DNA of 34,116 nt from Welwitschia mirabilis (GCA_051453625.1 JBOZIK010000001.1:1085066-1119181), one strand, 5' to 3'. Counted from the first letter of the stretch, positions 1,527-34,116 are shown. Numbers and translations: made by a program. The notes: generated by a model from the letters alone, not told the origin.

Positions 1527-1608
1527 CGTGATTTTACTACTGCTACAAGAAGAGTAAAAAAAAGAACTGTCATTTTTTTTAATGTCTCACATACTTTTCA
1601 TTTCTTTT

Positions 1609-1621
1609 GGCCCTGATACCA
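1609..1621 (-). other. Primer-binding site (tRNA-iMet type) of the copia element
   Basis: The minus strand reads TGGTATCAGGGCC, one mismatch from TGGTATCAGAGCC, 2 nt after the LTR-terminal CA. Confidence 0.88.
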
Positions 1622-1623
1622 AA

Positions 1624-2633: not shown

Positions 2634-5600
2634 TTAAATTATTGGCATTATCTAAAGGAAATTCCAACATCAATGACCTATTCATCAAATAGTGAAGGTT
2701 TTGCAAGTATAAGGTTAAATATTTTTGCTCAAGGTTGATTCCCGATATAAAGTAAATCCTAGAATCCTTTTATATCAAAGCATCTACGATGAAGGCTGAG
2801 CCTTAACATTAGTTGTCTTGCCTTCCTCATATGGTGGGGATTCGCAATGGATGCATTCTTTCAGTATATTGGTTGTAAAACATTCTCAAAATCCATGGCA
2901 TTTTCAATTAGTTATACATGGATTTTGAGGATTTCATTCATTATGTCATGATAGGAAAGTACACAAAAAGTCATAGTAACTATAAGGGCTATGCCACAGG
3001 AAGCACTAAGCTATGAGATTTCAAAAATAACTTAGCCATAAAGTAATATCTAAAGTAGTATGAAAAAGGCTATCCTTATTTTTACACAGTAGAATTTTTA
3101 TGTAGAGAATTCTAAGATCATGCACTTCACCTTTAAATATGCTAAGTGCTTAGAAAAATATCCTAAACACTATGTGTGACATGTAATATGCATGTCATTG
3201 CAGAGCACTGCAAGTCAAAGCAATAAGACGGTTTTGGATGAGAGTTTCTGGAAGACGTTGATTTTTTGTGTAAGGCCAGGGCACAAGAGAATTAATTCAA
3301 TGAGTCATTTAGACATGCATACAACCCATAAATATATAGATTTATTTTCAAAGAAAGATGGACTTCCCAAAAATAAAAAGGCAAATTTTGTGGTCTCTAA
3401 GTCATCATGGTAGTGATACTTTTCCAAATCCTTGGGATTACTTCTTTAACATATGTGACTAGTAAAATGTTTCTTTACTAATTTCGCTTCTTTTTTTTTT
3501 CAAGGCTCCCCAAATTTTTTCGTGGGGTGATGTTGGTCATAATAGGTATCAAAGGATCTAATTCAATAGTTCATTAGAAGTAAAAATTAATGGTGAGATT
3601 TTTCATGAGAAAATTCTAATGCAAAAAGGTAAGAAATGACATAACGAACAAATCAAGATTTTGAATGAGATAAATTGTCATAGAAGGAAGACTATTCTAT
3701 TTTAATAAAAAGAGATAAGTAGATAAAGATTTAATGGAAACAAAATACTAAGATATAGTGATTAGCATAAGACACTTGATAAAATAAATTACCAAATGTA
3801 ACATAGTATGCAATAATAGCAGAAGCCAACCTACTATTAGTGAATGAATAGCACAAAGAGAGATCCACTATGAAAAACAAGAACATGACTAAAATCCTAT
3901 CATCTAACATATAATAAGCAATATATAATAAATTAAAAATGAAAGAGAGGCACACCCTTTGTAGCAAATGTTAAAAAGTAAGCGGTTTTACATGAGAAGA
4001 ATACTATAGAATACAATTAATATTTTTTCTTCTTACTGTAAATGATAATAAAAATAATTAAAAAAAGCCTAAGCAATACAGATTTAAATATAACATCTTT
4101 TCAAAATGTCATCTATTCATGATGATCTATTGTTTTTGCAAAAATATTTTATTGTAATGTTTAATAATAGGAACTATAAAAAATATATAATGAAAAAATG
4201 ATATATTTTCAATGAGCTAAGTAAAACCAATTGAAATCCTACAAAATTGAAGCAAAGACTTACTATTCCTTGGAAAATTATGTTTAAGAAAAACTCTGAT
4301 ATTTTTCTACTTTAAGAATATACTACAGTTTCAAAGAAACATATGTCCTAGCTGCCGAGAAAGAGGCTAGTAGTCTTAAAATAAGAACTAAAGCTATCAG
4401 TTATCATATATACATCCCTAATCATCATTCTTCGATAAGGATTACAATAAAATTTAAAACAATGAAATCATTCATTTAAGCCAAATTAAATTATTCAAAG
4501 AAAAGTGAAACGATTTATAACAAGGGAAGAAAAAATAATAGATAAAATCTATTTATAAGACAAGCAGCCAAGAAATCCTAAATAAAGGAAGCCACAATAA
4601 TTATCATTATTTCTTAACCCAAAATGANNNNNNNNNNNGCAACCTAGACTTTATGGGTAAGTAATAAATTATTTACTTTAGATGTTGAACATTGTAAAAG
4701 AAAATAAAGAAACTTAAGATTTCAAAGCAATATCATTACCATTCAAATATGGATCATCTTAGAGTATGATGTAGTAAATTAAAAGTGTGGTGGATGTCAT
4801 AAGCCTAGTACATCAATCGTCTACCCTAATAAAAACCTAACAAGACATTGAAGAAACCAAACTCAAATAAATTAAAAATTATAAAACATTTAAAATGGTT
4901 ATTACAATGCAAGTACTTATACATGCATCGATAATGTAAGAAAAGAAAATACAGTTATATATTAAATTCCATTAATCAATAATGCAAATACTATATACAA
5001 TAATAATTAAGTAGAAAATATGTTCCTAGACTTGATAAGGAAATTACCTCACGGAAAAACCAGTAGGTTCTCACATGCTTAGGAATGAAGAAAAGAGGTT
5101 TAAGACCTCATGATAAGACAAGGCCTTCTCATAGTCATAGAAGCCATAATGAGATCAATAAATATGAGGGGATAAATTGTAAACAAGAAATACCTAAGAA
5201 GTAATAAGTTAATGATGATAATGTTTCCTAATGCTTGAGGTATGTTATGGTTTTATAGCCTTAGGCTTTAGGATTTTACACTTGGTTTAACTTAATAGTT
5301 TGATGTACATTGAATACACTAAATTAGGATAAAGTGAGCTTCATTAAAAATTAATATTAATCAAGTTCACATTTATTATAGCTTTCATCGTTTTGCATCA
5401 TTTAGTTAACTATGGTAGCTTTTTATCAAATATATGATTTAATGGTTGATCTTCAGTTTAGGTTTTTTGGTACCAAATTAAGACTTAAAAAATTTAACTA
5501 AAGCTTAATTATCAGGTTCTCACTTGCATAATTGAGACTTAAAACAATCAGCTAAAATTTAATTATTATAATCTAACTTGCGTAATAAATGCTAAGTAAC

Positions 5601-8026
5601 AATCCTTCATATTAAAAATTAGATAATAATTAGGATCAATGCTTGACTTGTAAAAGATGATTATTCAACATGGTATTTATAGCCTCAAAATAATTAATTT
5701 ATTAAGGTTTAAAAGAAAAAATTGTAAAAATTAAACTATAATCACATATAAAGAATGCTTAAAGTTTATTTTAATGAAGGATTTATTAACCATAATTTTA
5801 TCTTTGGATAAATATTTCCACAATAATAAACACATAGAATGTGATAGTTTATTCCACCATAATAATGATATAATGATTTACACTTAACCTAATGATTCCA
5901 ATATTTATCAACATTATTTTAAATTCAATTAGTGTCTAGTATTGTAACTTCCAAAACTAAAGAAAGTTAGGCTATTATCTCAAGGCTACAATTTCCTTAG
6001 AAGACAGTTTTGTGTTTTTATATAAATAAGTAAATTATTTAATTAAATCTTTATTCTTGTTATCTCACCAAATACAAAGCATTCATTATGCTAGTGCTTA
6101 TTTAATTATTATCTTGTTCACTTTCATCCTCATAATTATAGTGGTTTATTTTTACCATTAGTTTTTCTATCATGAACTCATTGCGATGATACATCAAGTA
6201 GATCCTTCTTTTAGAAGTTACATCATACTCACTTTCCAAGTCAATCATGAATTAATTAACTTTAATTGATTGTTACTTATCATTACTTTATAAATTCCTC
6301 ATTCCACATTGAATGTTATATAAACTAAAAATACATAATTAAGGTTTTCTACATACATAACATTACTAATGGAAGATCATTGATATGAAAATTAGGAACA
6401 TTGATTATTGAGAGCTTTTTTTTTATTTTTAATCATTATTCTTTAAGTTTGTTAATGTTATTATTTACACATTTTATCACTATCATTTGCTAATATGCTT
6501 TACAACACTTTAGATGGAGAATTAAATAAATGGGTTTCCTCTTACATAGCGAATCCTTTGGGCTTTTAATCATATTGTTTATCTTAGGGATTCAATCTTT
6601 AGAGTCTCTTTATGAAAATAGCATGTGAATTTATATCAGTATTATTATACCATGTTGCAATAAAAAAATGATGTAAAATCACAAAGATAACAAACGATTA
6701 TATCAGCTTGTATCCATTTATTGAATCCTTAACCTTTTTTTTTAAGTCACAACTACTATTTGTTAGACCAGAATATTGTTCAAGTTCATTTTAGTTATAA
6801 TGGAGGTTATATATTGGGTCCTAATTAATTTTTTATGAAATGAAAATTGTTAAGAGAAAAAAAGAATAACAACAATATTTGAAAAGGAGAAAGTGATGTG
6901 TTAATTTATCTTTTCTTGTCTTTATATCTTTTTAATATTTACAATATAATATACAAGGATTTAGGTGAGAGAAACTTTGTCCTTTATCTAAATATTTTCT
7001 TTAGAACGTTTTCGCTAGTGTCCTAACACACTTGCATATAAGTCTAAAACCAAGAGAATACATTAATGTAAACACAATTTAATTTGAAAAGTAAAGTATG
7101 ACTTGTTTCTCAAAGGCATGGTTGACAAATGGATATATTTAACATATCTTTTGAAAATTACTTAATTAAAGTCACATGGTGGATTCTAAAGCAAGGGTAA
7201 AAAGATCATAACAATATGGCAACTACAAATGCTCAAAAGTTTTTAATTAAGGTTACATGGTGGGTTGTAAAGGTGCAGTAAAAGGCTATTAAGAATATGA
7301 TATTTAAAGATGCAAGTCCTAAAATTAGAGTAAATGGTTAATAAGAATATGACAGGTAAAGATTTAACATGAAAAGAAGGAAAGATTGCTAAAACTTTAA
7401 TTAAAGGGTTGAGAATATAATAATTGAAGATGCGAACATGAAAAGGAAGAAAAGTTTTAGTGTATATATATATGTAGGATAATGAGGAGGAAAGGAAAAA
7501 TGTCAAAGATGGTAAAGAAAACAATACATAGGATGATAAGGATGATAAAGAAAACAATGTAACCAATGCATTGCACTGAGATGAGACAAAACTTTTTGAG
7601 ATGACACAACATGCACCCAACAAGAAATGAGGGAAGCTTTCCAGTGGGGAGGATTCCACTAAGCCTTTAATTTTATAAGCACTTTAATACATGTCAAAGA
7701 CCTAAAAATAAAGGTCTACACTTAATGTTGCCTCTAGGTTGCCATTTTGCTAATCCATATAATAAGAATCACTTTATGTCTTGTTGGCTTTTTTTAAGGT
7801 TTTGTAAGTACTCAACAAATTCCATATGGAATTCCGTTATCTTTTTCCGTTTGCCCACCCATAAATAGATGGAATTATTTTACTAAAATACAATAATCTT
7901 TTCTAATTTTCCATTGATTACAACATTAATTAAGTAATTAGTTAGCTAATACTAGAATTTTAATCTGGAATATTATACTTCGTTGCACTTTTTCAAGGTT
8001 GCACAGGCCCCGCAACCTCCGACGGA

Positions 8027-8046
8027 GAACGTCAGCGATGACGTCA
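8027..8046 (-). promoter_or_regulatory. as-1/ocs-like element (tandem TGA/bZIP sites)
   Basis: The minus strand reads TGACGTCA-tcgc-TGACGTTC: two TGACG cores with the canonical 12-bp spacing, about 300 bp upstream of the TATA box. Confidence 0.6.
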
Positions 8047-8094
8047 CGCAAGATGAAAAGGTCAGCCGTCGTGAGTGTTTGGTTGCCGTCTTGC

Positions 8095-8265
8095 TGACGT
8101 GGCAAGGCCGTTGGGTAGATGTCGAGTAAAGCAGCGCTTCATTAATTGCCGTCAGCGTCTCCGCTGTCCGCCGCCAACATGACGGAATATTCCGGGAGGA
8201 TCCCGGCCGCCGTCGCGGCGTGGCGTCGCGGGAGAGGGCTCTTTGGAGGTTGATGTCCACGTGGC
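8095..8265 (+). promoter_or_regulatory. ABRE/G-box-type ACGT elements
   Basis: TGACGTGGC at 8095-8103 and CCACGTGGC at 8257-8265, both upstream of the TATA box. Confidence 0.55.
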
Positions 8266-8347
8266 AACTGACCTCACCGCAAGCATCGGTGCTCGAATGC
8301 CTTTGCCAAGATTCGCTGCTTCGCTTCTTTCTGCACTTTTGCGCGCC

Positions 8348-8354
8348 TATAAAT
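8348..8354 (+). promoter_or_regulatory. TATA box of the UMAMIT gene
   Basis: CCTATAAAT in a GC-rich context about 240 nt upstream of the ATG, with no ATG between the expected start site and 8592. Confidence 0.75.
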
Positions 8355-8591
8355 GCCCTTCGTTTCTGCGTAAGCCAGAGACGCCACTTGCAGAGAGTGG
8401 CGACACCACGAAAACCAGTCGAGGAAAAGGTCGGAGAAGAAGCAAGGAACTGCAGAAGTTGCAGAAAAGGGAAGAGGCCGCACTCGGAGAGAGAAATTGC
8501 AGAAGAAAGAGGAGTCGCAGGAGAAGAACTTAGAGGTTCGGAAGAAGCTGTAGAACAAAGAACCTACCGAAAGAAGTTGCAGAAGGAGAAA

Positions 8592-10442
8592 ATGCGGTGG
8601 CAATGGTGGAAGAAGTCTCGGGTGGCTTGTGCGATGATCGCAGTTCAGTTGGCATTCGCAGGGATGAATATCGTCTCGAAGGTGGCGATGAGCGCGGGAC
8701 TGCCGTTCTACGTTCTCGTCGTGTATCGCCACGCGGTGGCCACCGTTGCGCTCGCGCCATTCGCATACTTTCTGGAAAGGTCCAATTCCACTAATTCCAG
8801 AACCCTTTTTTCCCGCGTCTCTGATCATTCATTAGTTCTGTTATCGCAGAACGAAGTCAGTTATGTCATCGAAAGAAGCTTTTGTTGAATTCATTGCAGG
8901 AAGACGAGGCCGAGGCTCAGCGGTCGCGTTTTGATGGAGATATTTACCAGCGCGCTGCTTGGGTGAGTCTCTTTCCGCGAAAGTTCGCTTTCCTTTCGCC
9001 GATATGTGGGCAAATTAAACGCATTACAGTTCCAACCAAATAACGATTGATTATCGCTCTTCTGCAAAATTGGACGTGGAAAGGTCGTCGTTGAACCAGA
9101 ATCTCTACTACGCCGGCATGCACTACACATCTCCGACTTTCGTGTGCGCACTGGCCAACATGGTCCCGGCCATCACATTTCTCATGGCGCTGCTCTTTCG
9201 GTAAAACCGACAGACGTTTGCGGCTCGACGCGCAAAGACGCAGATCAATCTGACAAGCTTTATGGTCGTTTCTTTTCTCAGAATGGAGAAATTGGCGTTG
9301 CGGAGCGCAGCCGGGCAGGCCAAAGTGATAGGAACGACTGTAACAGTTGCTGGAGGGATGATCATAACATTGTATAAAGGACCCGCTCTGAATCTCTGGA
9401 AATCCTCGCTGAATGTTGCGCCATCAGTTGCCACTTCTCATCCCAACTATTCGCCGATGAAGGGCGCACTTCTGGCTCTCGGCAGCTGCATCTGTTTCTC
9501 CTGCTGGTTCATCGTCCAGGTCTCCCTCGAATTCTTTCCACTTCTTTCTTTCTTTCCGTCCAAGAAACGCAATCTGACATGTCGGTGCAGGCGAAGATTG
9601 GAAGCAGTTACTCCGCGCAGTATACGAGCATAACGCTTATGTTCTTTTTCGCGACGATTCAGGCCACCGTTGGGGCGCTGCTTTTCCAACATTCTCGCCC
9701 TTCGGTGTGGAAAATGGGGTGGGATTCCAAGCTGCTGGCGGTCATCTATTCGGTCTGTAATCTCAAATCTGTAAATCCCCACCCTTTTCATCCTTCTGCT
9801 CATTTCTTGGAGTCCGTTAATTGTTAAATGTTGATGCCGGAAGAGTTGCAGGGGGTGGTGTGTTCGGCAATGGGCTTCATGCTGATGGCGTGGTGCATTC
9901 GCAAAAAGGGCCCGCTGATCGTAACAATGTTTACTCCCTTTCAGCTCATCATGGTCGCGCTTCTCAGCTCCGTTTTTCTGCGCGACAAACTTCACCTCGG
10001 CAGGTACACCTCAAAACCTCCTAACAAGAGTCTTTGCACACTAGCGTTTTTCTGCTCAAAATAAACACCGACGGCAAAAAGAAAAACCGCAATACTGCTT
10101 ATGTTGGTTGTTTTTCTGCGCAGCGTGGCGGGGTCTCTGTTGATAATTGCAGGAGTATATTCGGTGGTATGGGCAAAGACAAAGGAGTTTAACAGTCAGA
10201 AGAAGCAGATTCCAACGACTGCGATGAGTAATAACAAGATTATCTGCGCGCCTTCTGAGGATTATGATAATGTTGCCGACGGAGCGTCCGTTGCCGCTGG
10301 CGAGGAGCGGAACCCGGATTGTGATGACGCGAAACCGGGATCTGCCGGTGACAGTACAGTATTAGTAGGCGTCCGTGTCGTCGTCGGCGGCGGGGATGGC
10401 CGGACAGAAGCGGGTAGACGCGGTGAAAGCGACGAGAGGTGA
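8592..10442 (+). CDS. UMAMIT / WAT1-related protein (nodulin MtN21, EamA-like amino-acid or auxin transporter family), 7 exons, 412 aa: join(8592-8779,8900-8962,9084-9200,9282-9519,9591-9752,9852-10003,10124-10442)
   Basis: All six introns are GT-AG and the exons join in frame (1239 nt). Family motifs include VLVVYRHAVAT...PFAYFLER, LNQNLYYAGMHYTSPTF, NMVPAITF, AKVIGT, TLYKGP, WFIVQ, KKGPLIVTMFTP and GVYSVVWAK. Internal exons of 63, 117 and 152 nt are typical of the family. The specific ortholog cannot be assigned. Confidence 0.96.
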
Positions 10443-13400
10443 CGGGCGGTGATTGGTAGATTGGTGACGTAAGACATGCAAAAACATGGGGAAACACGCA
10501 CACGCCAACAGGTGGAAAACGGCATACCAACGTTATATTGCAAGTACTAAAAACATAATTGTTGCTTTTTTAAAAGAAGATTTAAACTGAGTTATATGGG
10601 TATATGGAGGCCTGGCATCGCTAACATCGCTAACAATACGAATGTTTTTAAAATAAGAGCTGGGGGAAATGCAAAATAATCTTATTTCTAATCTTCCCTT
10701 AGTTTATAAGTAAGTACTTTATTAGATGCAAAGCAAGTTATTTCTAATTTCTTGTCTTCATTTCAAGCAACTACTTTCTTCTTGAAGGAAAGTAACTATT
10801 ACTTTTTGTGATATATAACTAAATGTCATTTATAAGAATTAATATAAGAATTAAACATAACAATTGTAAGATTTGTGTCAATCGGATATTAGTCCTAGAC
10901 GGTTTTCAAGCTCTATAGTAAGTAATGTCTTATGCCTTTTAAACTAACATCACTTTGATCAAGGCATCATGGAAATTTCATTCTAGGGGAACATGAAGGT
11001 GTATGAGTAGGAATAAAGAGCTAATCTTCATGGTATCACTCTAAAGAGTTGGCCTTAGACAAGTGCAAGGAAACAAAATTTCTAAGATTAAAAGAAAAGG
11101 AAAAGAAACAACATACTAGTGCAAGAAATGAAAAAGGAGGATTAGAAAAAATTCATTTCTATAGAGGACAAAGGAAAAAGATTCAATAACGTGTTCTAAG
11201 AATTAAAGAAGAAGAGACTTGCAATATCCATTTAGATTTTAAAGAAAAGGTATTTTCAAATCCAAATAAATTCATAAGAGCCTCATTTTCTTTTCAATAT
11301 TATTTGTTCCCCTTGATAATTGAAAAGATGTGGGAAGATATCAAAAATATTGTTAAGAAAATCCAGCAAGAAGGCTACTTTGACTGTAGATCAAGGGATG
11401 ATAATCAAACCCATAAAAGAAGAGATAAAACTATTAATAATTTTATGTTTCATCAAGAGCCAGAATCGCTTACAGAATTAAGAAAGAATTAAGAAATAAA
11501 TAAAAGGTTAGTTGAACTTCATTCCAAATAATACATGTATGATATTTTGTTTTAAAAAAAGATAACATTGTGATATGATAGCAATGCACTAGAAATAGGA
11601 TATATTAAAGAGAACACAAGTAAGTTATGAATTTTAGAATATCTTAGGCTAAAATTGCCTTTGATAAATAGTGACTTAGTGAGAATAAGGATATTTATAT
11701 ATCAAAATAGGTATGTGGTTCTTGCTACAAAAGGTAAATACAAGATTGTTAAGAGATGAGAATAGGTCTAGAATAAGTTAGAGGATTTGATTTAGATCAT
11801 CTAAGTTCTTTATACCAATGAATAAGCTTAATATCATAAACAACTAGTGTATAAACATGCATAATGGTGAAAAAGAACTAATTATGAAGGAATGATAAAT
11901 ATGAAGTTTGATATAAGTGTTTTGCTAAAGTAAGTAATACCAATGTATTGTAAATCAATAATTTCAATGTGATCTTATATTATAATATCAAAGGAGGATT
12001 AAGATATAAGACACATAATGCTATGGTCTAGAATCATAGCTAAAAATATCTATATAGAGAGTGAGCATATTTCATATCACACAAGATCATCGCATGGATC
12101 CTTCAATTATTTTGGCCACATGTACATAGTGCTTTGTTTTGTGTAAAGAATAAACACAAAATCTAGATAAAGCCATTACACAACTTTATGTTGATGAGTT
12201 CTTCATTTTTACCTTTTTAAAAAGCTCCTAAAGTTGTATTTATTTTAAGAAAAAATTAAGTAAATAAATAAATAAATAACACCTTGATTTGTTAAAAAAT
12301 CGTTAAAGAATATAAGAAAAACACAGATAATAGTATGAATGCCTAACGAGAAAAGAAGAAACCACATAAGAAATGAAGTGATAAAAGTGATCACAAGAGT
12401 GAAAGAAATAACAAACTACATTTGTAATAAAGCTTATAGTCCATTGTTCTACTTTCTTGATATAACACCCGATATTGTATCTTATGTCTATCAATTGAAG
12501 CTATACTTGAATACTTAGATAGACATATGATTTTTATATTTTAAAGAAAACTAAAAAATTCCTAGTCATTGGGATAAATGCTATGTATTGGTAATTATAT
12601 CCAAAATAAGTTGTTAAGAATAACATGTGATAAAATATACTCCTTGATTAAGGAGAGACATGCCTAGCTCCTAAGGCAAAGGGTTGCATATTCTAAAGTA
12701 AAACAATTGTAATTTTAGAGAATCATAGTTATCATCTTTCATGAAAACTACAAACAATTTTAAATGCTTACTAACACATTCTTTTAAATCAAATTAAATG
12801 TTGATTTATATAGATTATGAAAAGCTTAAAAAGATTATGTAATGGATAAATACTTCTTCTTCTAAGCATAAAAAGTGATCATTAAAGAAATCCTTAGCAT
12901 GCCTAAATTATTAAGACCACAAATATTATCTACATGTCCTTAACATAAGTAATAATTCATTATAGACTTAAAATCTATCATAAAATAATTCATGAATCAT
13001 TTTTTAAAAACCTTAAATGGATACGAATTGCAAAAATTAGGACATGTAATATTAGCATAATATGACTACCATTTAGGAATGAATTATCTCACAACATCAT
13101 GTTACATAGAAATCATGAAAGATGTTCTAAATTCTAACACATTAATTATTTCAACCTTAAAATTATATCAAAGAATTGTAGAAATCATCAAACACCAAAA
13201 GATAGTTTAAGTTATTATTGTATTAAAAGTAATCATAAATGCATTAATGATAAAAGCCAATGATAGACTAAGAAAAACCAATGATCTATATCACAAGTGA
13301 GCTCATCATTCTTTTAAAATCANNNNNNNNNNNNNNNNNNNNNNNNNNNNNNNNNNNNNNNNNNNNNNNNNNNNNNNNNNNNNNNNNNNNNNNNNNNNNN

Positions 13401-13712
13401 NNNNNNNNNNNNNNNNNNNNNNGAAAAAATAGGTTCTTATATGGTAACATTAATAAGACTTCAAATCAATACTCTTATGAGGGAGGCTCTACTAGGGTTT
13501 TAGAGCTCTGCTAGGGTCTAGCAGATCTAGAGCACAAGAGGGAGCAAGGCTTGAAAGGCCGTGGATTGGCAGGGGCAGTTTCAGTCCCTCGTCATGGAGT
13601 ATTGGGGGCGATTTTGGCCACCAGGCAATCTTTCTATAAGTAAGTTGCAAAATATTTTGAAATCTTAGTTATGATCCATGTTTACAATTTTTTCGAGGGG
13701 TTTGGCTCCAAC

Positions 13713-14810
13713 ATGGAGAAGATTCAATTCTCAAAGGAAGGGGAATCCCTAGTTTTAAACATTGATAAAGATGCCTGCTGTGAGATTGAGAAGAAACTTT
13801 AGTATAGTTTCATTAGAAAGTTAGTCTTATCTGGCCCATGACTAAGGCTAGATTGGATCTATGAATGGGTGACAACTAAATGGACGGGAGTTAGTAAAGT
13901 TGATGTTATTGTTATGCTAGAAGGACTGGTGCTTTTCCAGTTAGACAATGAACGAGATCGAAATTAAATAATCATGAGAATACCTTGGTTCTTTGGATTT
14001 TAGGATCTTTCCCTAGCCAAATGAATGCCAGGGGTGTAATCAGACCCAAAACTCTTTAAGAGGCTGCCAATCTGGATTTGCATCCACAAGTTTCCATTAG
14101 AGTTTTGGGATGAAGATCTCTTAAGAAAAAATATTGCTCGTTTTGGTGAACTGATCAAACTAGATAGGATTATCATCAAATAGATGAGACTAGCTTTAGC
14201 CAAATTTTGTGTATGGATGAACCTAGAGGACACAAATAAGATTCAATCCATAAAGTTTAGATTTAAATGGAGTACATGTAAACTTAAAGTTACTTATGAG
14301 AGCCTTCTAGTCTTATGTAATGTTTATGGAAAATCGGGGCATATTTTGGGGAGATGTGTTTCTTCTGAAAATAAATGTTCACATTATGTAGAATAGGTCA
14401 TTTAAGAGAAGAATGTAGAAAACGATCGATTGACATTAAGGAAAAGCAAAAGGAAATCTGTACTTTTTGTGAAAAGACCAAACGTAATGAAAGCTTATGT
14501 TAGCATAAGAAAAGAAAGGAAAACACAGAAAAAGTACTACTATTTTTCTTAAGGAAACTAAGGACAGTAAGAAGAAGAAGGTACAGGAAAGGCAATACTT
14601 ACCCTTCCAACATCTTGTGGAAGAAGAATATACCCAACAAACACCAAATAGTAATGAACCTAATGATGTGAAAACTCAAATAAAAGAAAGGCCCAACAAT
14701 AGAACCCTTTAAGAAAGGGAAATGACAGAGAATATGGCTAATAGCTCTTAAGCCACCATTGAAGATACACTAAGAAAAGGTCAAGCATTCAAAAAAGGAC
14801 AAAAACACCC
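13713..14810 (+). pseudogene. LINE ORF1 remnant (DUF4283-like RRM region plus zinc knuckle)
   Basis: One frame from ATG 13713 gives MEKIQFSKEGESLVL...WIYEWVTTKW...PWFFG...LPIWICIHKFPLEFWDED...VTYESLLVLCNVYGKSGHILGRC with in-frame stops. The 3' end is approximate. Confidence 0.85.
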
Positions 14811-14813
14811 CCA

Positions 14814-17800
14814 TTGAATTGTATCACATGCAATTACAGGGGATTAGGTTCCTCCTATAAGAAAAAGACCCTAGGAAACCTTATCAGTCAATTTAATATT
14901 GATTTAGTTTATTTACAGGAAATAAAAATAAAAAATGATATGAAAATAATAAGTTTAGGGTAGTAATGGAATTCCTTTATCTATGTAATCCAAGGTAATT
15001 CTGGAGGCCTCATGATCTCCATAAAAAGGGAGGTAGATCTAATTAATAGTAGTAAGATCCACATCATAATTTTCCTTAAAGAAGAAGGCTGGACTATGAC
15101 AAACATTGATAGTTCCCAAAATAACCAAGATAAAGCCTCTATCTTAGAAGAATTATAGTGGACAATGATAGATAAATATAAATGGCTCATTGTAAGGGAT
15201 TTCAATCAATGCCTTTACCACTGGGAAAAATCAGGCAGCGATAATTGAAATTCTAGAGGAGCTTCAATCCTTAAAGAGTTTTTGGCAAAAAATTCTCTTA
15301 CAGAAATTAATATTGCTAGATGTAAGTACACATGATCTAATATAAGGGTAGGCAAAAATCTGATCATGTCCAAGATCGATAGAATTCTTGCTAGCAAGGA
15401 TTTAGCTAAGCTCTTGATTGAAGACTATGGCTTGAATAAGATAGCTTTGGATCACCATCCTATCAGACTCAGAGTGGGGGCAATTTTGCCCTAGAGAACC
15501 CCATTTCAAATGAAACAGTATTAGGTTAGTCAGATAGAGACTAAAACATTAATGGTAAAATTATGGGCCGAGTATGATGGAACTCAACCCATAACTTTTC
15601 TATACAGGGGTCTCAATACATTAAAAGCCCACATAAGAGATTGAAGAAGCAAAGATAAAGAGAGAATTGAGTTAAAAGCAGAACTTGAGAAATAAATCCA
15701 AAGAATTCAGACTAAGTAAGAGGAGGAAGGAGACTAAGATAGCCTACACAACAGGGAATATTAGTGCTTATTAGAACTCCAAGAAATAAATGCTAATGAG
15801 GAAAATTATTAGAGAGAACACTCAAGAATCAAATGGCTAAAAAAGAGAGATAAGCACACTAGGTTTTTCTTCCAGTAAGTCAACCAACACATATCAGACA
15901 ATAGGATTAGAGGGCTTACCATTAGAGGCCAAATAACAAAAAATGAATAGGACATAATCAAGGAAATGTAGGTCCATCTTATGAGAATCTAGAAATGGGA
16001 CGATATCGTCTTTGGCCTTATTCTGGAGAATAAGAGAATTTTTAATGAGGACAATTCNNNNNNNNNNNNNNNNNNNNNNNNNNNNNNNNNNNNNNNNNNN
16101 NNNNNNNNNNNNNNNNNNNNNNNNNNNNNNNNNNNNNNNNNNNNNNNNNNNNNNNNNAATCTAGAAATGGGACGATATCGTCTTTGGCCTTATTCTGGAG
16201 AATAAGAGAATTTTTAATGAGGACAATTCCTTGCTTATTAAACCATTGAGTAGAGATAAAGTTTTAGCTACTGTGAGGTCTATGAAAAACAATAGATCCT
16301 CTGACCCTAATGGGTGGCTAGTTGAAATTTTTAAATCTTACTTCTCCATATTAGGGGATAATATTCAGGACGTTATGCAAGAAGTTTTTTATAATAAGCA
16401 AATCCCTATGGAAATGAATAAAACTAGGTGGTTCTTATCCCTGAAAAAAGGGATGCCAGCAAAATAGAGGACTTCAGATCTTTAGATGTCTGTAATAGTC
16501 TTTATGGAATCTTCGCGAAAATCATTATTTGCTGAATTGCCCCTGCTTCCCAAGGTGATTTTAGAGANNNNNNNNNNNNNNNNNNNNNNNNNNNNNNNNN
16601 NNNNNNNNNNNNNNNNNNNNNNNNNNNNNNNNNNNNNNNNNNNNNNNNNNNNNNNNNNNNNNNNNNNNNNNNNNNNNNNNNNNNNNNNNNNNNNNNNNNN
16701 NNNNNNNNNNNNNNNNNNNNNNNNNNNNNNNNNNNNNNNNNNNNNNNNNNNNNNNNNNNNNNNNNNNNNNNNNNNNNNNNNNNNNNNNNNNNNNNNNNNN
16801 NNNNNNNNNNNNNNNNNNNNNNNNNNNNNNNNNNNNNNNNNNNNNNNNNNNNNNNNNNNNNNNNNNNNNNNNNNNNNNNNNNNNNNNNNNNNNNNNNNNN
16901 NNNNNNNNNNNNNNNNNNNNNNNNNNNNNNNNNNNNNNNNNNNNNNNNNNNNTTATCCCTGAAAAAAGGGATGCTAGCAAAATAGAGGACTTCAAACCTT
17001 TAGATGTCTGTAATAGTCTTTATGGAATCTTCGCGAAAATCATGATTTACTGAATTGCCCCTGCTTCCCAAGGTGATTTTAGAGAACCAAGTTGGCTTCA
17101 TCCAATCCAGGTATATCTAAGACCAAATCCTCTTAACTCATGAGATCATTCACTCTATTAAAAAATATAAATTTCTTCTTCTCATTGCTAAATTGGATAT
17201 TGCCAAAGATTATGATTTGGTCAGTTGTCATGTGTTAGGAAGTATCCTCAAGAAAACTGGTTTTCATCAAGATATCATTAATCTTTGGCTAGATATAAAG
17301 GAAGCAACCAAATTCAGTATAGAGGTCAAAATTCATAGATCAATTTTTTTTAATAGCTCAAGGATTAAGACAATGGGACCCTCTATTTGCATATCTTTTC
17401 CTCTTTGTGATGCATGTTTTACATGTCTTCTTAAGTAGTAATGGAGTTATAGGAATCAAAATTAGAGGTCAAACTTTTATCGATAATCACTATGCAGATG
17501 ATACCATCATTATGATCAAGGCTTCATGTCAGCAAGTAAAAGCTATTAATAATTTCATAAACCCTTTTAAGATAGCTACAGGTCTTCATACTAACTAAAA
17601 AAGTCAAGAATTCATACTTTTGGAAGAAATAGTATCAGAGGAGGTGAAATCACCCAAATCCTAAATGCAAGACTAGGAGACTCACAAGATATTTACGTGG
17701 GAATTCCCTTTGAAATTAGCACAAGATCCTCACCTGGAATTACATACTTAATTCCATTTAAAGATAGTCTAACTCATGACAGAATAATTTCCTCTCATCC

Positions 17801-19212
17801 AAAGCAAAGATCATCCTCACAAACTCATGTTTAGTCTCTTCTTTCCGATATATAGCTTCTGTTATTGGCCCTCGAGGAATATTATTCAAAAAATCAATAG
17901 GATATTGAAAGATTTTATATGGTCTAGAGGTGAAAACCAAAATCAAATTCATCTTTGTAAATGGGAGACAATAGCTCATCTAAAAGAATCAAGAGGATGG
18001 AGGATTCAGAAACCAGTGGATTAAATCCTTATTGGAGCTCATAGAATCTTAAAAAGACTAAATGAAGGAGGACAACCTTGGAGTAACTTGATCAATCACA
18101 AATACATAAATTAGAGCACTGCTCAGGGAGAGTCATACCTAAGAGAACACCTCAAAAAAGACCAAAAACAACTTTTAGAATTAAATATTTGTCAAATATA
18201 TTCTCTTAAAGAAATATGAAAAAGATGAATTATACAAGAAATATTAGAAGGGTCAAATTCTAGAAAAAATAAAAGTATTTTGTTAGTTAAAAGATTATCA
18301 TAGAGTTATAACTAGAGATAAACTACTCAAGAGGGGTTTTAAGTAAAAATAAACTATTCTGTCTGTCAATCATGTCCTAAAACTACACATCACTTATTTC
18401 ATCAATGCACTTAGTGCAAAGAATTAATAGTAATAATGAAGAAGTACTACCAGGCCTGCAACATTTCTGATACCTACTTAAATAACGGGATTTGTTTGAT
18501 GTACTATTAGATTTGGAGAATCAGAAATGATCTNNNNNNNNNNNNNNNNNNNNNNNNNNNNNNNNNNNNNNNNNNNNNNNNNNNNNNNNNNNNNNNNNNN
18601 NNNNNNNNNNNNNNNNNNNNNNNNNNNNNNNNNNNNNNNNNNNNNNNNNNNNNNNNNNNNNNNNNNNNNNNNNNNNNNNNNNNNNNNNNNNNNNNNNNNN
18701 NNNNNNNNNNNNNNNNNNNNNNNNNNNNNNNNNNNNNNNNNNNNNNNNNNNNNNNNNNNNNNNNNNNNNNNNNNNNNNNNNNNNNNNNNNNNNNNNNNNN
18801 NNNNNNNNNNNNNNNNNNNNNNNNNNNNNNNNNNNNNNNNNNNNNNNNNNNNNNNNNNNNNNNNNNNNNNNNNNNNNNNNNNNNNNNNNNNNNNNNNNNN
18901 NNNNNNNNNNNNNNNNNNNNNNNNNNNNNNNNNNNNNNNNNNNNNNNNNAGGGGTTTTAAGTAAAAATAAACTATTCTGTTTGCCAATCATGTCCTAAAA
19001 CTACACATTACTTGTTTCATCAATGCACTTAGTGCAAAGAATTAATAGTAATAATGAAGAAGTACTACTAGACCTGCAACATTTCTGATACCTACTTAAA
19101 TGACGGGATTTGTTTGATGTACTATTAGATTTGGAGAATCAGAAATGATCTGATTTTCAATAACATCCCCTTACCATTTCCTTTAAATACTGCTAGGAGA
19201 ATTAAATGCTAG
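14814..19212 (+). pseudogene. LINE ORF2 remnant (APE endonuclease, reverse transcriptase, zf-RVT region)
   Basis: Endonuclease motifs CNYRGLG...LVYLQEIK, VRDFN, SKIDRIL, LDHHPI; linker SRIKWLKKRDKHTRFF; RT motifs SSDPNG, QVGFI, KLDIAKDYDLV, RQWDPL, HYADDT (about 17488-17505); C-terminal DFIWS, HLCKWETI, RNDLIFNN. It is interrupted by stops, frameshifts and N gaps. Confidence 0.93.
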
Positions 19213-19233
19213 CACTTTTAAATAAAACTTGGA

Positions 19234-20379
19234 ATGGAAGCTACGTCCATCGTCGAGACATCTGATCTTGATTTCTTTGAAGGTTGCCTAGCCCTATGGA
19301 AAAAAGTGCAAGTTATGGAATAGGTAACCCTCTTACACAAGATTAGGGGAGATCAAGAAATCGATATTACCCCCTTTTACAAATGTTCGAGAGGAGAGCA
19401 TATAACTTACAAAAGAATCCCTATCGAAATAATTAAAGATTCACTCTTTAAACTCTTGAAGATTCTTGCAACTAGAGAAAGGATCTCTCTTAGAAGACAA
19501 GGGTAGTGGAAAGTACTTTACTTATTTCCTAGTAGGGTTCCTAAGTTACTAAGTGGATACATCATTCTAAAGGCACTATCAGCCCTATGGAGTTTAGGCA
19601 CAGAACTAGTTGACCAATATTTTGTCCAGTCTGGGAACTACTCTAAGCTCTCAGGCATTTACTTCAAATTTTTTAAAGCCCTAGACTTAGGGTGCCAAGT
19701 GAATTTACCTTTATTTTTTGTTTAATCCCTTAAAAAAAAAAAAGACTTCTTTAGACATTATGGATTAGTTTTGGCTCTTTGGCAAGTAGCTAATGAAATC
19801 AGGGTAAGAGAGGTCCCTTCATCTCCTTCATGATGATGCCAACATTAGACTTTACTAAGGAGATCTCTTAAGAGAAGGGCCATTATGGAAGGATCTCCTC
19901 AATTTGAGGAGAACGCTGTACAAGGTAGCCCCAGTCAGTGGGGCGTGACTTCACCCATAAACCACATAGAGGAGATAAATTTACCCCTAACCAAGCAAGA
20001 GACAACTTAAGAGACATCTTATGAGACAACTAGGGAGCCAATTTAAGAACATCCATAAGAGAGGCCCAACCAAGCCTCCGCTCCACCAACAAGAAGCCTT
20101 AGTCCTACCTAGAATTTAAGTATAAACTCTTCTTTAGTAGAAATGTAGCATCACTCTCAAGAGGACATAGATATGAATGTTTCTCATTGGGAAGTTATGC
20201 TGGCAACAATCTAAGGACTAAAGAGATGCCTCTTCATCACATTAGGAATATCCCATAGAGCCTTCCCTCAAGCCATCAAATTCAGCTATAAAAAGAATGT
20301 CCTTAGATTATATCCAAATAAAATCCTAGTAGGTGTTGAAGAATTCAAAAAAGTAAATCAGACTTTGATGTGCTACTGA
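19234..20379 (+). pseudogene. Extra ORF3 inside the LINE, resembling plant transposon accessory proteins (Transposase_32/PMD-like) followed by a low-complexity region
   Basis: A single frame from ATG 19234 gives MEATSIVETSDLDFFEGCLALWKKVQVME*VTLLHKIRG...LSALWSLGTELVDQYFVQSGNYSKLSGIYFKFFKALDLGCQVNLPLFFV*SLKKKKDFFRHYGLVLALW, then an S/P/E/T-rich tail. The family call is from recalled motifs only. Confidence 0.65.
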
Positions 20380-21332
20380 TGAAATGGATCATTTCTTACT
20401 AGAATACAAACATGGTAATCTTTTTCCTTTTTGTAGATAATAATAATCCTCCCTTGATCAATTCTTTCTCTAGCCTAAGTTAAGTTTTATCACCTTTAGT
20501 ACTTTGGAGCATTTTCCTCCCCAGCTGTAAGTTAGCAGTTTTTTCTAGTGGTTGATGCATAGTATTCTTCTAGATAGGTAGTTTTTTATCTTTAGTATGT
20601 TTTCCCAGGGGCACTTTCACCTCCAATTTTATTCTTTTTTTGATCCATTTCTAAACTTTCAATGGAATGTTTTTCCTTTCTTCGAACAGTTTAAACTTCC
20701 TGTCAAGTTAGGGCATTATCACCCCCCTATGTAAATTTTCTAGTTTAGTATACTTGCTATTTTTTAAAAAGAATAAGACTTTAAGTATAGCCTCTAGTTT
20801 AATTTAAAATTAATCATGTCAAACGACATAGACAAGATAGATAAAATATTAATTATAACAAAAATTTAGAATTAACTTAACTAAAGATATTTATAATGAA
20901 ATATTAATACAAATAATTTATCTATACCTTTTTAATAAATAATTTCATAGATATATTAACATTAAAACACTAATACAGAAGCTATAGTATCATTACAAAT
21001 CTCTTCATATGCATTGTAATATATTTTCATATGTTTCATAAGAATCTTATAAGCAATGTCTCTACATTACGCGTATTTCTATCTCCACATGCATTTGAAT
21101 AGATTAACCATTGAAAAACTTTCTAAATATCATGTCAAAAAAGTGCTTTATATCTCTAGATTTTCTTTAGATATGATTTATGAATACTTTAGCTATGAAA
21201 TCTTTGAAGTTTTTGGAACTTTTCACAATCTTATGAATATATTTTAACTATCAAAGCCATTCTAAGTCATATTTGTAACAATTCCAAAAACTTGTTTTTG
21301 AAACCATCATCTATTATGGTAAGTTCATCGTT

Positions 21333-21791
21333 TGTAATACATCATGAAATATTGTAATAACTATTCAAAGTATGTAACATTTATAGAATAACTATTTCTT
21401 AAAAAGTTGTATTATTTTACTATGATTAAATAAGGGATTTTGGAATGAAAAGGGTATGTATGTGACTTATACAGAAATACTGAATCCTTAATAAACTGGC
21501 CTGGCTCCTTGGTGGTTTCATAGACTAGACCTTAAAGGAAATATGATCTAGCCAAATTGGCTACCTAAGATCTTACATTTAACATAATGAAATTTCAAGT
21601 TAACTATCAAAAAATTAGGCAATAAAGATAAGTACTACCTTTTCTTTAAATATCTTATATTTTTACTTATTCAATAAAGATCTTTTCTTTCTTCTCCAAT
21701 CTTTTCTAATGTTCTTAAATGATGTTCTCAACTACTATTAAAATCTTTTTCTTTCTTATTTTAATTTTTAAGAGAAATTGAGAATGTCACA
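21333..21791 (+). repeat. Putative LTR (TGTAAT...TCACA); the left boundary is uncertain
   Basis: It ends in CA 2 nt before a PBS and contains AATAAA followed by a T-rich U5-like tract. Confidence 0.5.
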
Positions 21792-21793
21792 AT

Positions 21794-21805
21794 TGGTATC
21801 ATAGC
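21794..21805 (+). other. Primer-binding site (tRNA-iMet type)
   Basis: TGGTATCATAGC matches TGGTATCAGAGC at 11/12 and directly follows ...GTCACA-AT. Confidence 0.7.
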
Positions 21806-22099
21806 AAATCTATTCATACTAATATGTAAAAGATTTTTTGAAAATATAAAATTTCATTAACAAGCTTAACACCCAATACAAGCAAAAATAAAGTAAACTA
21901 CAAGAAACATCAAGGAGATAATAAATAGACCATAGTGGCTTGAGATTAAAAAAGACAACAAAAGTAATACATCACTAGGGGATCATTATTCTATGAACAA
22001 GAAGCCTCAGGCAAAGGATTGAGTGAGTTAAGGAGAATTTTACCTTCCTTGTCACTGAGCAATGAGTAGTCCAAGGTAAATAACTTAGTATAGTAATCA

Positions 22100-24669: not shown

Positions 24670-26105
24670 TTTGAAAAGATGAGCTATACTTAAAAGGAAG
24701 CATCATACTATTGAGTGTGCAGTTTGAATTCATGATATAATTAAGCAAGAGTAATGAAAGAAATCTATAATGTTAAAAGATAAATTAGCCTTATAAGGAG
24801 ATTCACATTATTGATTGGGCAGCCTAATTTCATCATAGAGTTAAGTAGTGATGACCTAAGTAGTTTGAGAAGTGAAAAGGTGAACTAGACTTATAAAGAA
24901 GCACCACACTCTTAGCTAGCAACCTAATTTAATCATTGAGTTAATTGGTGGTTATTTAAGCAGTTTAAGAAGCAAAATGTTAAACTAGACTTATAAAGGG
25001 TTATCACACTACTCACATGGAAATTCAAAGATGATTTCATACTAAATCAGTAGTTGTAAGGGCCTAATAGTTGACTAGATCCATAAGACGGTGTTAGGCT
25101 ACTGACATAACAACCCAAAGATGATGTCATGCTAATATTAATAGTCATGAGGGCCTAATAGTGGACTAGATCCATAAGGGAGTGTTACACTGGTGATATA
25201 ATATCCCAAAGATGATGTCATGTTGACATCAATAGTTACAAAGGCTTAATAGCAAACCAAATCCATAAGGACATGCTACACTACTAATATGGCAACCCAA
25301 AGTTGATGTCACCCTGATATCAGTAGTTGTAAGGTCCTAATAGTGGACCAGATCCATAAGGGGGTGCCACGCTACTGACACAATAGTCCAAAGATTATAT
25401 CTTTTTTACATCAGTAGTTACAAGGATCTAATAATGAACTATAGCCATAATAAGACACCACACAATTGACATGACAGTCCAAAGATGATGTCATATAGAC
25501 ATTAGCAGTCATAAAGATCTAATAGTAAACTAGATATAAAAGAGAATACCACACTATTGATATTGCACTTTAGATATGATGTCATATTGACAGTAGTAGT
25601 TATAGAAGCATAATAGTTTATTAGATCCATAAGAATACATCAGATTATTAATAAGACACCTCAAAATCTATGCCAAACTAATAATAATACTTACAAGAGT
25701 ATAACACTTTATCAATCCATAAGGAGGCACCATGCTATTGAGTAAACACCTCAAAATACATGCCAAAATGATATTAGTAGTTGCAGGAGCATAATACTTC
25801 ATTATATCCATTAGGGAACACCACACCATTGATCAAACACCTCAAAATCCATGCTAAGCTAACAGTAGTAGTCGCAGGAGCATGTCACTTTATCAAATCC
25901 TTAAGGAAATATTACACTATTGAGTAGACATCTCGAAGTCCATGTCAAACCAACATTAATAGCCACAAGAACATAACACTTCATTACACTCATCAGGGAG
26001 CATCACACTATTGATCACATACCTTAAAATTAATGCTAACTTAACATAAATAGTTATCAAAGTCTAATACTTTACCAAACTTATAAGGAGTACCACCCTA
26101 ATGCC
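24670..26105. repeat. Diverged tandem array of about 16 units (about 100-bp period on the left, 90-91-bp period thereafter)
   Basis: A GATCCATAAG/GACTTATAA-like anchor recurs at 24687, 24788, 24888, 24988, 25078, 25169, 25260, 25351, 25442, 25533, 25624, 25714, 25805, 25896, 25987 and 26078. Confidence 0.92.
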
Positions 26106-32183: not shown

Positions 32184-32445
32184 CTTAGGTGATGAATGAT
32201 ATTATGCCATCATGATTTAAACTTAATAACTTAGGGAGGGAAATATTTAATGCAAGTAATTATCATATCTTCTATAATTGAAGTTTCATGTATATATAAC
32301 TTGGACAAGATTAGAGTGTTAGTTTGTTTCTACTTTTGCTAATTGAATTTTTCCTTATTACATCTTGGATTTAACTTCCTATTATTTAAATTTTACTTTG
32401 AACTTTTTTATGTGCCAAATTTTATAAGCTAATGATATTCATCCT

Positions 32446-34116
32446 TGTGAAGAAAACAATACTGGATACTGCTTAGTTAGAACAGATAGAAGTATGTTGT
32501 GGTGTGAATTTATGCAATTCTAAAGTCCTTTAGGTAAACTTGTAATTAAATAACTTGCAGAAAAACACATGCTAGTATAAACGGGAGTTTACCTAAATGT
32601 CATAATCCCAACGAAGACACTAGGCTCAGAGTTAGAGAATTGATTTCCAAGGGTAGTTTTGGTATTTATCTTTTACTTAACTGAAAGGAAATAGNNNNNN
32701 NNNNNNNNNNNNNNNNNNNNNNNNNNNNNNNNNNNNNNNNNNNNNNNNNNNNNNNNNNNNNNNNNNNNNNNNNNNNNNNNNNNNNNNNNNNNNNATCCTT
32801 GTGGAGAAAACAATACTGGGTACTGCTTAGTTAGAACAGATAGAAGTATGTTGTGGTGTGAATTTATGCAATTATAAAGTCCTTTAGGTAAACTTGTAAT
32901 TAAATAACTTGTAGAAAAACACATGCTAGTATAAACGGGAGTTTACCTGAATGTCATAATCCCAACGAAGACACTAGGCTCAGAGTTAGAGAATTGATTT
33001 TCAGATTTGTTTTTGGTCTTTTATCCTTTACTGAATGAAAGTAAATAATAAAGTAAATGCAATGCAAGTGAATGGAAGTGAAATGCAAGTGAATGGAAAT
33101 GAAAATAGAATGGATTCTTTTGATTCCTAATCCTTCTGTCACAAGAACTAGCTTCTAGCCTTTCTATTACAAAGACTATCCTTCCTATGATTCAAGTCAA
33201 TTAAGAAAAGCATTCATCTAATTCCTAACGAACATGAGCTATGAGATGTACCAAATAGAATATGCAATATTTGATATGAAATGAAATGGAAATGCAATGC
33301 AAACATACTACTAACCAAGGTCAATCTTAACAAAGGTTGCCCTCATGATCTAAATAAATCATAGATTTGTCACTTAACTATGACCAAGTTAAACCATAAG
33401 GGACATTCANNNNNNNNNNNNNNNNNNNNNNNNNNNNNNNNNNNNNNNNNNNNNNNNNNNNNNNNNNNNNNNNNNNNNNNNNNNNNNNNNNNNNNNNNNN
33501 NNNNNNNNNAAAAGCATTCATCTAATTCCTAACGAACATCAACTATGAGATGTACCAAATAGAATATGCAATATTTGATATGAAATGAAATGGAAATGGA
33601 ATGCAAACATACTACTAATCAAGATCAATCTTAACAAAGGTTGCCCTCATGATCTAAATAAATTATAGATTTGTCACTTAACTATGACCAAGTTAAACCA
33701 TAAAGGACATTCAAAGAATTGGAATGAAAAGAGTATTTGTATAAATTCAAAAGAACTGTACATCCATTTATAATAGAATAATAGCACCTCAATGGTAAAA
33801 ACACATCCTAACACTAAGGTAACTCCTTTCTACAGCTATTGGATGGATCTCCTCCCTTTAAGCTTCCGTCACAAGCATATCAGATGCAAAAGATGATTTG
33901 GAAGTAAAGGAGAGAAGGGTATTTATAGTTTTACAATGAACTGTAATCCTAGATATTGGTGAAGAAAACCCTAGCGGCCCACATGGATTACTTAACCCCG
34001 TTTACAATCATATTTATTATGAACATGTAAAATAAGTTATCATCTCGACTGTCATAGGGATGATAAAGAGGACGACACTACCTTTTACCTTAGGTTGTGT
34101 GCCCATGTTATGCCTT
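32446..34116 (-). mobile_element. Probable LTR of another retrotransposon in reverse orientation, running off the window
   Basis: It starts at plus-strand TGT (minus-strand ...ACA end), has a minus-strand TATA CTATAAATACCC near 33917-33928 and short AATGCAA/AATGGAA repeats, and is non-coding. Confidence 0.45.

Follow-up and report, generated by a model that had tools for sequence, protein, structure and literature searches.

A probable third open reading frame ending in a J domain in a decayed L1-type LINE of Welwitschia mirabilis

Long interspersed nuclear elements (LINEs) are thought to need only the products of two open reading frames (ORFs), ORF1p and ORF2p, together with host factors; in some plant L1 elements, ORF2 ends in an RNase H. 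Here, we asked what is encoded by positions 19,234–20,379 of a 34,116-nt stretch of DNA from Welwitschia mirabilis, a seed plant whose genome is very poor in GC (GCA_051453625.1, JBOZIK010000001.1:1085066–1119181; “the window”, from whose first nucleotide all coordinates are counted), where coding sequence appears to continue past the end of ORF2 of an L1-type LINE, and whether this region is part of the element. We consider it likely that the stretch is the decayed ORF3 of this LINE, which occupies ≈13.46–20.77 kb, that ORF3 consists of an N-terminal domain (N-domain), a charged linker of variable length and a C-terminal J domain, and that it is an integral part of the element, long kept in the LINE lineage. 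An initial annotation, made from the sequence alone, had recognized a third coding region past ORF2, where some plant L1s have RNase H, and the 382-codon frame, its deficit of stop codons and its homologues, described below, bear this out. That annotation overlooked the C-terminal J domain, which, by sequence comparison, is the only part of ORF3 with a firm family assignment.

The reading frame downstream of ORF2

The end of ORF2 reads ...IWRIRNDLIFNN... and is followed by two stop codons, TAG at 19210–19212 and TAA at 19219–19221. ORF3 starts 21 nt past the ORF2 stop with an ATG at 19234–19236 and continues in the ORF2 frame for 382 codons to a TGA at 20377–20379; start, frame and the two preceding stops are as initially annotated. 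The frame is interrupted by 12 internal stops (five TAG, five TAA and two TGA, at codons 30, 91, 164, 200, 201, 205, 259, 271, 275, 293, 305 and 327). With the terminal codon, this makes 13 stops over 19234–20379, compared to 23–33 in each of the other five frames, which together set the background for the stretch at 148 of 1901 codons, or 7.8%. The ORF3 frame is thus real beyond chance, although the shortage of stops lies in its first and last parts. The frame can be divided as follows, where P0002, P0003 and L001 denote the homologues described below and HPD the His-Pro-Asp motif of J domains:

19210–19233, + strand: ORF2–ORF3 junction, with stops at 19210 (TAG) and 19219 (TAA) ahead of the conserved Met codon; both ORFs in one frame.
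19234–19830, + strand: ORF3 N-domain, ≈200 codons, with 3 stops in 199 codons; homologous to P0002 and to P0003/L001; no Pfam family.
19831–20214, + strand: ORF3 linker, charged and Ser/Thr/Pro-rich, with 9 stops in 128 codons.
20215–20379, + strand: C-terminal remnant of a J domain, helices I–III, in which HPD reads YPN; no stops in 54 codons (20215–20376), then TGA at 20377.

Elsewhere in the LINE, stops were counted in 6 of 176 codons of ORF1, 14 of 359 in the endonuclease (EN) and reverse transcriptase (RT) and 3 of 77 at the ORF2 C-terminus. Since the ORF3 domains do not exceed these densities, all parts of the LINE seem to have decayed together and to be of equal age.

A HMMER protein search over 1,835,955,588 representatives (E ≤ 0.001) returned two homologues of ORF3. 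P0002 (E = 1.2e-16) is a 91-residue ORF from a Trinity transcript of W. mirabilis in EukProt. It aligns without gaps to ORF3 residues 1–90, with 49% identity over 90 residues (pairwise E = 1e-26) and a Met start at the same position. P0003 (E = 2.8e-4), with 86 residues, aligned to ORF3 residues 123–187, across a run of twelve A. The window N-domain is 40–42% identical to P0003/L001 over 66–82 residues. It had been suggested that the internal stops fall where Gln, Arg or Trp codons would fit. This is so for codons 30 and 91, both TAG in the window, which are Trp and Gln in P0002, but not for codon 164, which is Glu in L001/P0003; such a fit is no test by itself, because it is true of any stop codon. 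A word-indexed protein search with ORF3 gave no scored match among its candidates, of which 1460 were similar in length, 1751 were longer and 114 were shorter, and in alignment-based scans, none of 43 stretches in viral contigs and none of 29 in prokaryote genome contigs proved to be relatives. A DNA search of plasmids, a collection ill suited to plant DNA, gave no match.

P0003 led to a second element, L001, a 13,874-nt metagenome contig that was the sole one confirmed of 161 pattern matches. On one strand, L001 contains DUF4283 (Pfam E = 1.1e-19), Exo_endo_phos/Exo_endo_phos_2, RVT_1 (E = 4.7e-18), zf-RVT and, ≈2.4 kb further, DnaJ, in that order. At the DNA level, L001 has no similarity to the window beyond one 47-nt match. 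As proteins, the two are collinear: by tblastn, ORF1 is 36% identical over 176 residues (E = 5e-30) and EN/RT 25% over 364 residues, with further RT pieces at 25–59%, and the window EN and RT align with the corresponding L001 regions at E = 4.5e-23 and 2.7e-19. A single tblastn high-scoring segment pair (HSP) spans the ORF2 C-terminus and the ORF3 N-domain (18979–19794 in the window, 5057–5887 in L001; 288 residues, 24% identity, E = 1e-10). This HSP crosses the junction, so that in either element ORF3 comes after ORF2 and continues its frame. The ORF3 start Met is common to the window (19234), L001 (5327) and P0002. In L001, there is no stop before this Met, so that ORF2 runs into ORF3.

L001 ORF3 extends from ≈5327 to 7866 (≈850 codons), with one frameshift near 5890–5944. 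It contains 12 stops in 863 codons (3 of 205 in the N-domain, 8 of 555 in the linker and 1 of 103 in the J domain, counted in segments that have 52 nt around the frameshift in common), compared to a background of 6.4%. The linker (5944–7400) comprises ≈500 Lys/Glu-rich residues, is clearly open and is nearly four times as long as that of the window; no Pfam family matched it at E ≤ 10. Its basic runs resemble nuclear localisation signals. The element appears to end in a run of nine A at 8008–8016, 141 nt past ORF3, where the GC content drops from ≈38% to ≈28%; the stretches compared for a target-site duplication (TSD) had no 10-mer in common. Since two LINEs so distant from each other both carry ORF3, the comparison argues for an old gain held by selection rather than a one-off 3′ transduction.

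The J domain and the N-domain

The last part of L001 ORF3 matched the Pfam DnaJ family (PF00226) with E = 1.2e-8 and 35.4 bits, above the cutoff of 27.8, over positions 2–63 of the 63-position profile. Searched against the PDB, it matched J domains with 20 distinct sequences at E ≤ 0.01, most strongly that of DNAJC5 (2e-6), and the L001 sequence YYLDK was aligned to YHPDK of the PDB J domains. Helix I (YDVLGV), helix II and the helix III–IV patterns are all present. In the window, the homologous end of ORF3, its last 54 codons, is the best local match to the L001 J domain (30% identity over 33 residues, E = 0.007) and matched DnaJ below the cutoff (E = 3.8e-4 by itself and 0.015 within the whole ORF). 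A model of the J region made by AF2 from an alignment of only two rows had a pLDDT of 59.4; Foldseek gave no PDB match at E ≤ 0.001, with J domains only among the rows at E = 2–5.

J domains bind Hsp70, trigger its ATPase and hand over bound cargo, and HPD is essential for the stimulation of Hsp70. At this motif, located between helices II and III, L001 reads YLD and the window reads YPN; each of the two can be derived from HPD through C>T or G>A changes (H>Y, P>L, D>N). We compared the window with Logan contigs of two DNA sequencing runs (X1 and X3) that matched it at ≥80% identity. In X1, the family contigs differed from the window by 577 C>T, 530 G>A, 447 T>C and 411 A>G changes, compared to 18–117 per transversion class. 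Decay of this kind is described in the Welwitschia genome paper (PMC8275611). The window copy is dead: all three ORFs contain stops, YPN stands in place of HPD, and the J domain is truncated. Some family contigs have an extra T after position 20375 (8.5 of 45.2 summed depth in X1 and 37.1 of 77.1 in X3), which changes the reading frame immediately ahead of the TGA; the end of ORF3 therefore varies among copies.

The statement of the initial annotation that ORF3 lacks RNase H motifs agrees with our results, as RVT_3 (PF13456) was found neither in the forward frames of window positions 13000–22001 (E ≤ 0.1) and L001 positions 1–8402 (E ≤ 0.01) nor in the ORF3 pieces (E ≤ 10). The proposed likeness to the Transposase_32 and plant mobile domain (PMD) proteins of long terminal repeat (LTR) elements, for which an hmmscan comparison had been suggested, found no support in such a comparison: at E ≤ 10, the N-domains of the window and L001, P0002 and P0003 matched no Pfam family, including PF20167 (Transposase_32), PF03078 (ATHILA), PF10536 (PMD) and RNase H.

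A different kind of comparison, with clusters in the ESM Atlas, brought two of these families back into view. For a stop-free stretch of 105 residues from the second half of the L001 N-domain, 9 of the 30 nearest clusters were PF20167 clusters, at a score of 0.90 and with 153 of 256 features, a count below that usual for true members. For P0002, which corresponds to the first half, all 30 nearest clusters were unnamed (0.93–0.94, 188–189 features; Streptophyta where known), and the nearest named clusters were PF20167 (0.89) and ATHILA (PF03078; 0.88). PF10536 was not among the Atlas rows listed. That two non-overlapping pieces of the N-domain lie near PF20167/ATHILA clusters in this model-based comparison may be taken as a lead; it is no homology test. 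The AF2 model of the N-domain, from a four-row alignment, was unusable (pLDDT 32.3).

The LINE in the window and its family

The remaining parts of the LINE and its candidate boundaries are as follows:

13452–13461, no strand: candidate 5′ TSD (AATAAGACTT), the only 10-mer common to 13100–13760 and 20380–20950; contig depth rises there from ≈50 to >1000.
13713–14700 (end approximate), + strand: ORF1, decayed, with DUF4283 at ≈13857–14214, then a Cys/His knuckle.
14770–19212 (start approximate), + strand: ORF2, decayed and frameshifted, collinear by tblastn with the Exo_endo_phos, RVT_1 and zf-RVT regions of L001.
≈14871–15500, ≈16234–17708 and 18979–19209, + strand: subparts of ORF2, namely EN, RT and the C-terminal zinc-binding part.
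20380–20771 (boundary approximate), + strand: 3′ untranslated region, ending in a run of five A (20766–20770).
20772–20781, no strand: candidate 3′ TSD (AATAAGACTT), pairing with the 5′ copy at 13452–13461; contig depth falls there.

The DUF4283 of ORF1 was matched by Pfam with E = 2.3e-14 and 53.6 bits. No direct Pfam match to RT or EN was found in the 3000-residue frame reads of the window, and the reverse frames of 13000–22001 matched no Pfam family. ORF2 is interrupted by N gaps at 16058–16157, 16568–16952 and 18534–18949, and the flanks of two of these are duplicated, 18332–18533 being 97% identical to 18950–19151, and 16435–16567 being 96% identical to 16953–17085. The same pattern was observed more widely: the N gaps within 15986–16229, 16435–17085, 18332–19151, 1633–2367, 32441–33047 and 33206–33713 each lie between direct repeats with 91–100% identity over 54–253 nt. 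Most likely, these repeats are overlapping scaffold ends that the assembler left unmerged, and parts of ORF2, including its C-terminus, are thus doubled.

The initial annotation placed ORF3 within a candidate TSD. The AATAAGACTT pair does bracket the LINE together with ORF3, but is not significant by itself, as a shared 10-mer also arose in 442 of 2000 shuffles; an assembly gap (13323–13422) lies directly upstream of its 5′ copy. At the 3′ end of the LINE, only the five A precede the 10-nt TSD candidate. Two other candidate boundary features were rejected. A resemblance at “GATCCAT” had suggested terminal direct repeats of LTR type, and local alignment of 13423–13900 and 12901–13322 with 19201–21000 gave scores of 25 and 28, as expected by chance. 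The run of twelve A at 19732–19743 is no poly(A) tail either, as it encodes KKKK in the ORF3 frame and lies within the alignment to the homologous P0003.

To see how far the repeated sequence extends, we followed the summed depth of the X1 and X3 contigs along the window (depth is not copy number). In the left flank (12500–13167), the summed depth was ≈19–58, and the two flanks together ranged from 15 to 58. Across the LINE body (13502–19179), it was ≈1200–15000 in ungapped bins, with two bins that are almost wholly N gap reading 4–13. For X1 and X3, respectively, it then reached 886 and 1347 at 19180–19513, 636 and 924 at 19514–19847, 441 and 531 at 19848–20181, 1520 and 2028 at 20182–20515, 446 and 828 at 20516–20849, and 18 and 15 at 20850–21183. 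A single-copy contig begins at 20704. Because the depth remains high to ≈20849 and unique DNA is found only beyond ORF3, the ORF3 segment is repeated many-fold like the LINE. Together with the equal order and frame in L001, this upholds the earlier proposal that ORF3 moved with the LINE. At position 19624, A accounts for 605.5 of 619.3 depth in X1 and 655.6 of 672.1 in X3, giving Ile, as in L001 and P0003 (YFIQ).

The window as a whole is AT-rich scaffold DNA, mostly 22–35% GC, with ten N gaps. A GC-rich island on the + strand (8000–10700, 41–54% GC) contains exons of an EamA-like transporter gene that belongs to the host (Pfam match to EamA with E = 8e-6 and 26.6 bits, slightly below cutoff), the N-terminal exon of which reads ...AMIAVQLAFAGMNIVSKVAMSAGL...; the LINE lies ≈3 kb downstream of this gene. 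Downstream of the LINE, a second repeat at 21184–21851 has a summed depth of 220–384, compared to 15–71 around it. A tandem array at 25046–26078, with ≈11 copies of a 91-nt unit that are 61–77% identical to the reference copies, is a decayed satellite or minisatellite.

Origin and possible role of ORF3

Several observations weigh against ORF3 as a long-kept, J-domain-containing part of the LINE. The window DnaJ match, 20.9 bits, is below the cutoff of 27.8 (E = 3.8e-4, profile 4–48 of 63), and the window J domain stops after helix III, with all three frames past 20379 within the range of shuffled sequence. Neither copy, as read, has HPD. The genomic copies seen number two, with one transcript fragment in addition; all are broken, and there is no intact ORF3 among them. 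The linker of the window contains 9 stops in 128 codons, a density equal to the background, and the ORF3 frame of this copy may not be continuous through it. The window LINE has neither a clear poly(A) tail nor a significant TSD. The depth over ORF3 is 2–10 times below that of most of the LINE body, even though the 3′ end is expected to be commonest, as L1 copies are usually 5′-truncated. Many family members may lack ORF3, or ORF3 may diverge faster, which would also lower the depth because of the 80% identity threshold. Finally, few RNA reads fell on the LINE, mostly with less than 90% identity (256 of 286 in run X14 and 100 of 106 in run X17), and the depth over ORF3 was at most ≈1. These reads stem from other copies and do not show expression of the window copy.

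Some of these points would fit a passenger of no use to the element, that is, part of a host J-protein gene picked up by an ancestral LINE through 3′ transduction or template switching. Transduction of 3′ flanks by LINEs is well established, and the loss of HPD in both copies, the lack of an intact copy and the lower depth over ORF3 are in keeping with such a passenger. A neutral passenger, however, would have lost its similarity at the protein level. ORF3 is 24–42% identical between the two elements (ORF2, 25–33%), which have no DNA match, and its frame, order and start Met are conserved, while the L001 frame has far fewer stops than background. We therefore regard a useless passenger as distinctly unlikely. 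A chance frame, or another repeat or gene fragment brought next to the LINE by nested or adjacent insertion, would account for the shifts in depth along the stretch (886–1347, 636–924 and 441–531, then 1520–2028), for the lack of a significant TSD or poly(A) tail and for the stop density of the linker. Such a coincidence is very improbable: L001, unrelated at the DNA level, has the identical juxtaposition, frame and order, and the lack of DNA similarity means that the two loci are not copies of one recent chimeric insertion. Moreover, there are significant protein homologues in the ORF3 frame, and no loose-end cluster lies at 19.2 kb among the best-supported clusters listed (with 9499 further rows beyond these).

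Another question is whether the region is a separate ORF at all. It could be a C-terminal extension of ORF2p, either as a fused EN–RT–(N-domain)–J polyprotein or through readthrough of a stop, with the stops at 19210 and 19219 due to decay. ORF2 and ORF3 share one frame at both loci, the single tblastn HSP crosses the junction, L001 has no stop from the ORF2 C-terminus to the conserved Met, and the TAG and TAA of the window junction are each one transition from CAG/TGG and CAA, respectively. On the other hand, the Met itself is conserved in the window, L001 and P0002, and two stops precede it within 24 nt in the window; as L001 is also decayed, a stop lost there is as likely as stops gained in the window. 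The predicted ORF of P0002 begins at the conserved Met and not upstream, which favours a separate ORF3 over a fusion or readthrough product. We consider the extension unlikely. The long-kept third ORF could be translated by re-initiation after ORF2, the mode by which ORF2 of mammalian L1 is translated, or else by fusion to ORF2 or by readthrough.

In its overall organization, the element resembles other plant L1-type LINEs, which have DUF4283 and zf-CCHC in ORF1 and an APE-type EN, RT and a zinc finger in ORF2. It shares with them DUF4283 in ORF1, EN, RT and zf-RVT in ORF2 and an ORF2 tail of the form ...IW..RN..IF...; it differs in having an extra coding region past ORF2, ≈380 codons in the window and ≈850 in L001, that has no RNase H match. 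DUF4283 is the dominant ORF1 domain of plant L1s according to the main text of an L1 survey, in which, its supplements aside, neither “DnaJ” nor “ORF3” occurs (PMC5203782). Like the DnaJ/Hsp40 co-chaperones (PF00226), the end of L001 ORF3 passes the Pfam cutoff and matches 20 solved J domains. Unlike them, the ORF3 J domain is encoded by a retrotransposon, is C-terminal to an N-domain without a Pfam family, lacks a G/F or zinc-finger region and, in the decayed copies, has YLD or YPN in place of HPD. The J domain of the polyomavirus T antigen provides a viral precedent. With the extra ORFs of plant LTR elements (Athila ORF1, PF03078; Transposase_32, PF20167; PMD, PF10536), ORF3 has in common that it is an accessory ORF and that its nearest named Atlas clusters are PF20167/ATHILA; it differs by its location in a non-LTR LINE, by being joined to a J domain and by having no HMM match to these families at E ≤ 10. 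PF20167 has been reported from a 3′ accessory ORF of an Athila element and to be related to Athila ORF1 (PMC11728184). Other LINEs that have gained coding capacity include primate L1 with its ORF0 and insect LINEs with a captured viral SF1 helicase, as described in the main texts of two papers (PMC5203782, PMC6338049); these differ from ORF3 in protein, position and host. Neither main text refers to a J domain or a chaperone; in the second, on retrotransposon accessory domains, the words DnaJ, J-domain and chaperone do not occur (PMC6338049). In a literature search for which subscription journals and supplements lay outside coverage, we found no paper on J domains in LINEs or other non-LTR elements, or on an ORF3 in a plant LINE. 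Provisionally, then, a J-domain gene in an L1-type LINE is not known from earlier work.

How might such a protein act? ORF3p would be an Hsp70 co-chaperone encoded by the element itself, the J domain of which would recruit host Hsp70 to the partner of the N-domain. This partner could be the ribonucleoprotein of the LINE or else, at LINE copies, chromatin or methylated DNA. The recruitment of Hsp70 might then help the particle to assemble, to be remodelled or to enter the nucleus, or promote the transcription of silenced copies. By analogy only, since these are host genes, the nuclear J-domain proteins of Arabidopsis (SDJ1/SDJ3 and the PKL-associated J-domain proteins) offer a possible model for an anti-silencing role. 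SDJ1 and SDJ3 are described as activating genes with methylated promoters (PMC7827474), and other J-domain proteins are described in a preprint as acting with the PKL chromatin remodeler (bioRxiv 10.64898/2026.09.14.751395). In its most specific form, the idea would be that LINEs of a gnetophyte-type lineage supply an Hsp70 co-chaperone of their own, in which the N-domain is a distant member of the Athila-ORF1/Transposase_32 group, a module common to LTR and non-LTR plant elements. The J domain would act as an anti-silencing factor that, in the manner of the SDJ/DNAJ proteins of the host, switches heavily methylated copies back on, or it would remodel the LINE particle. Taken as a whole, this combination is unlikely, and we offer it as speculation.

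The evidence comes from one transcript fragment and two genomic copies, both of them dead. If the J-domain-containing ORF3 is indeed an integral part of these elements, a LINE lineage that kept a J-protein gene through deep divergence would be a retrotransposon with its own handle on host Hsp70, as in some DNA viruses. This would provide an entry point to ask which step of the plant LINE cycle, retrotransposition or escape from silencing, depends on chaperones, and the accessory proteins of plant retroelements would gain a possible functional partner.

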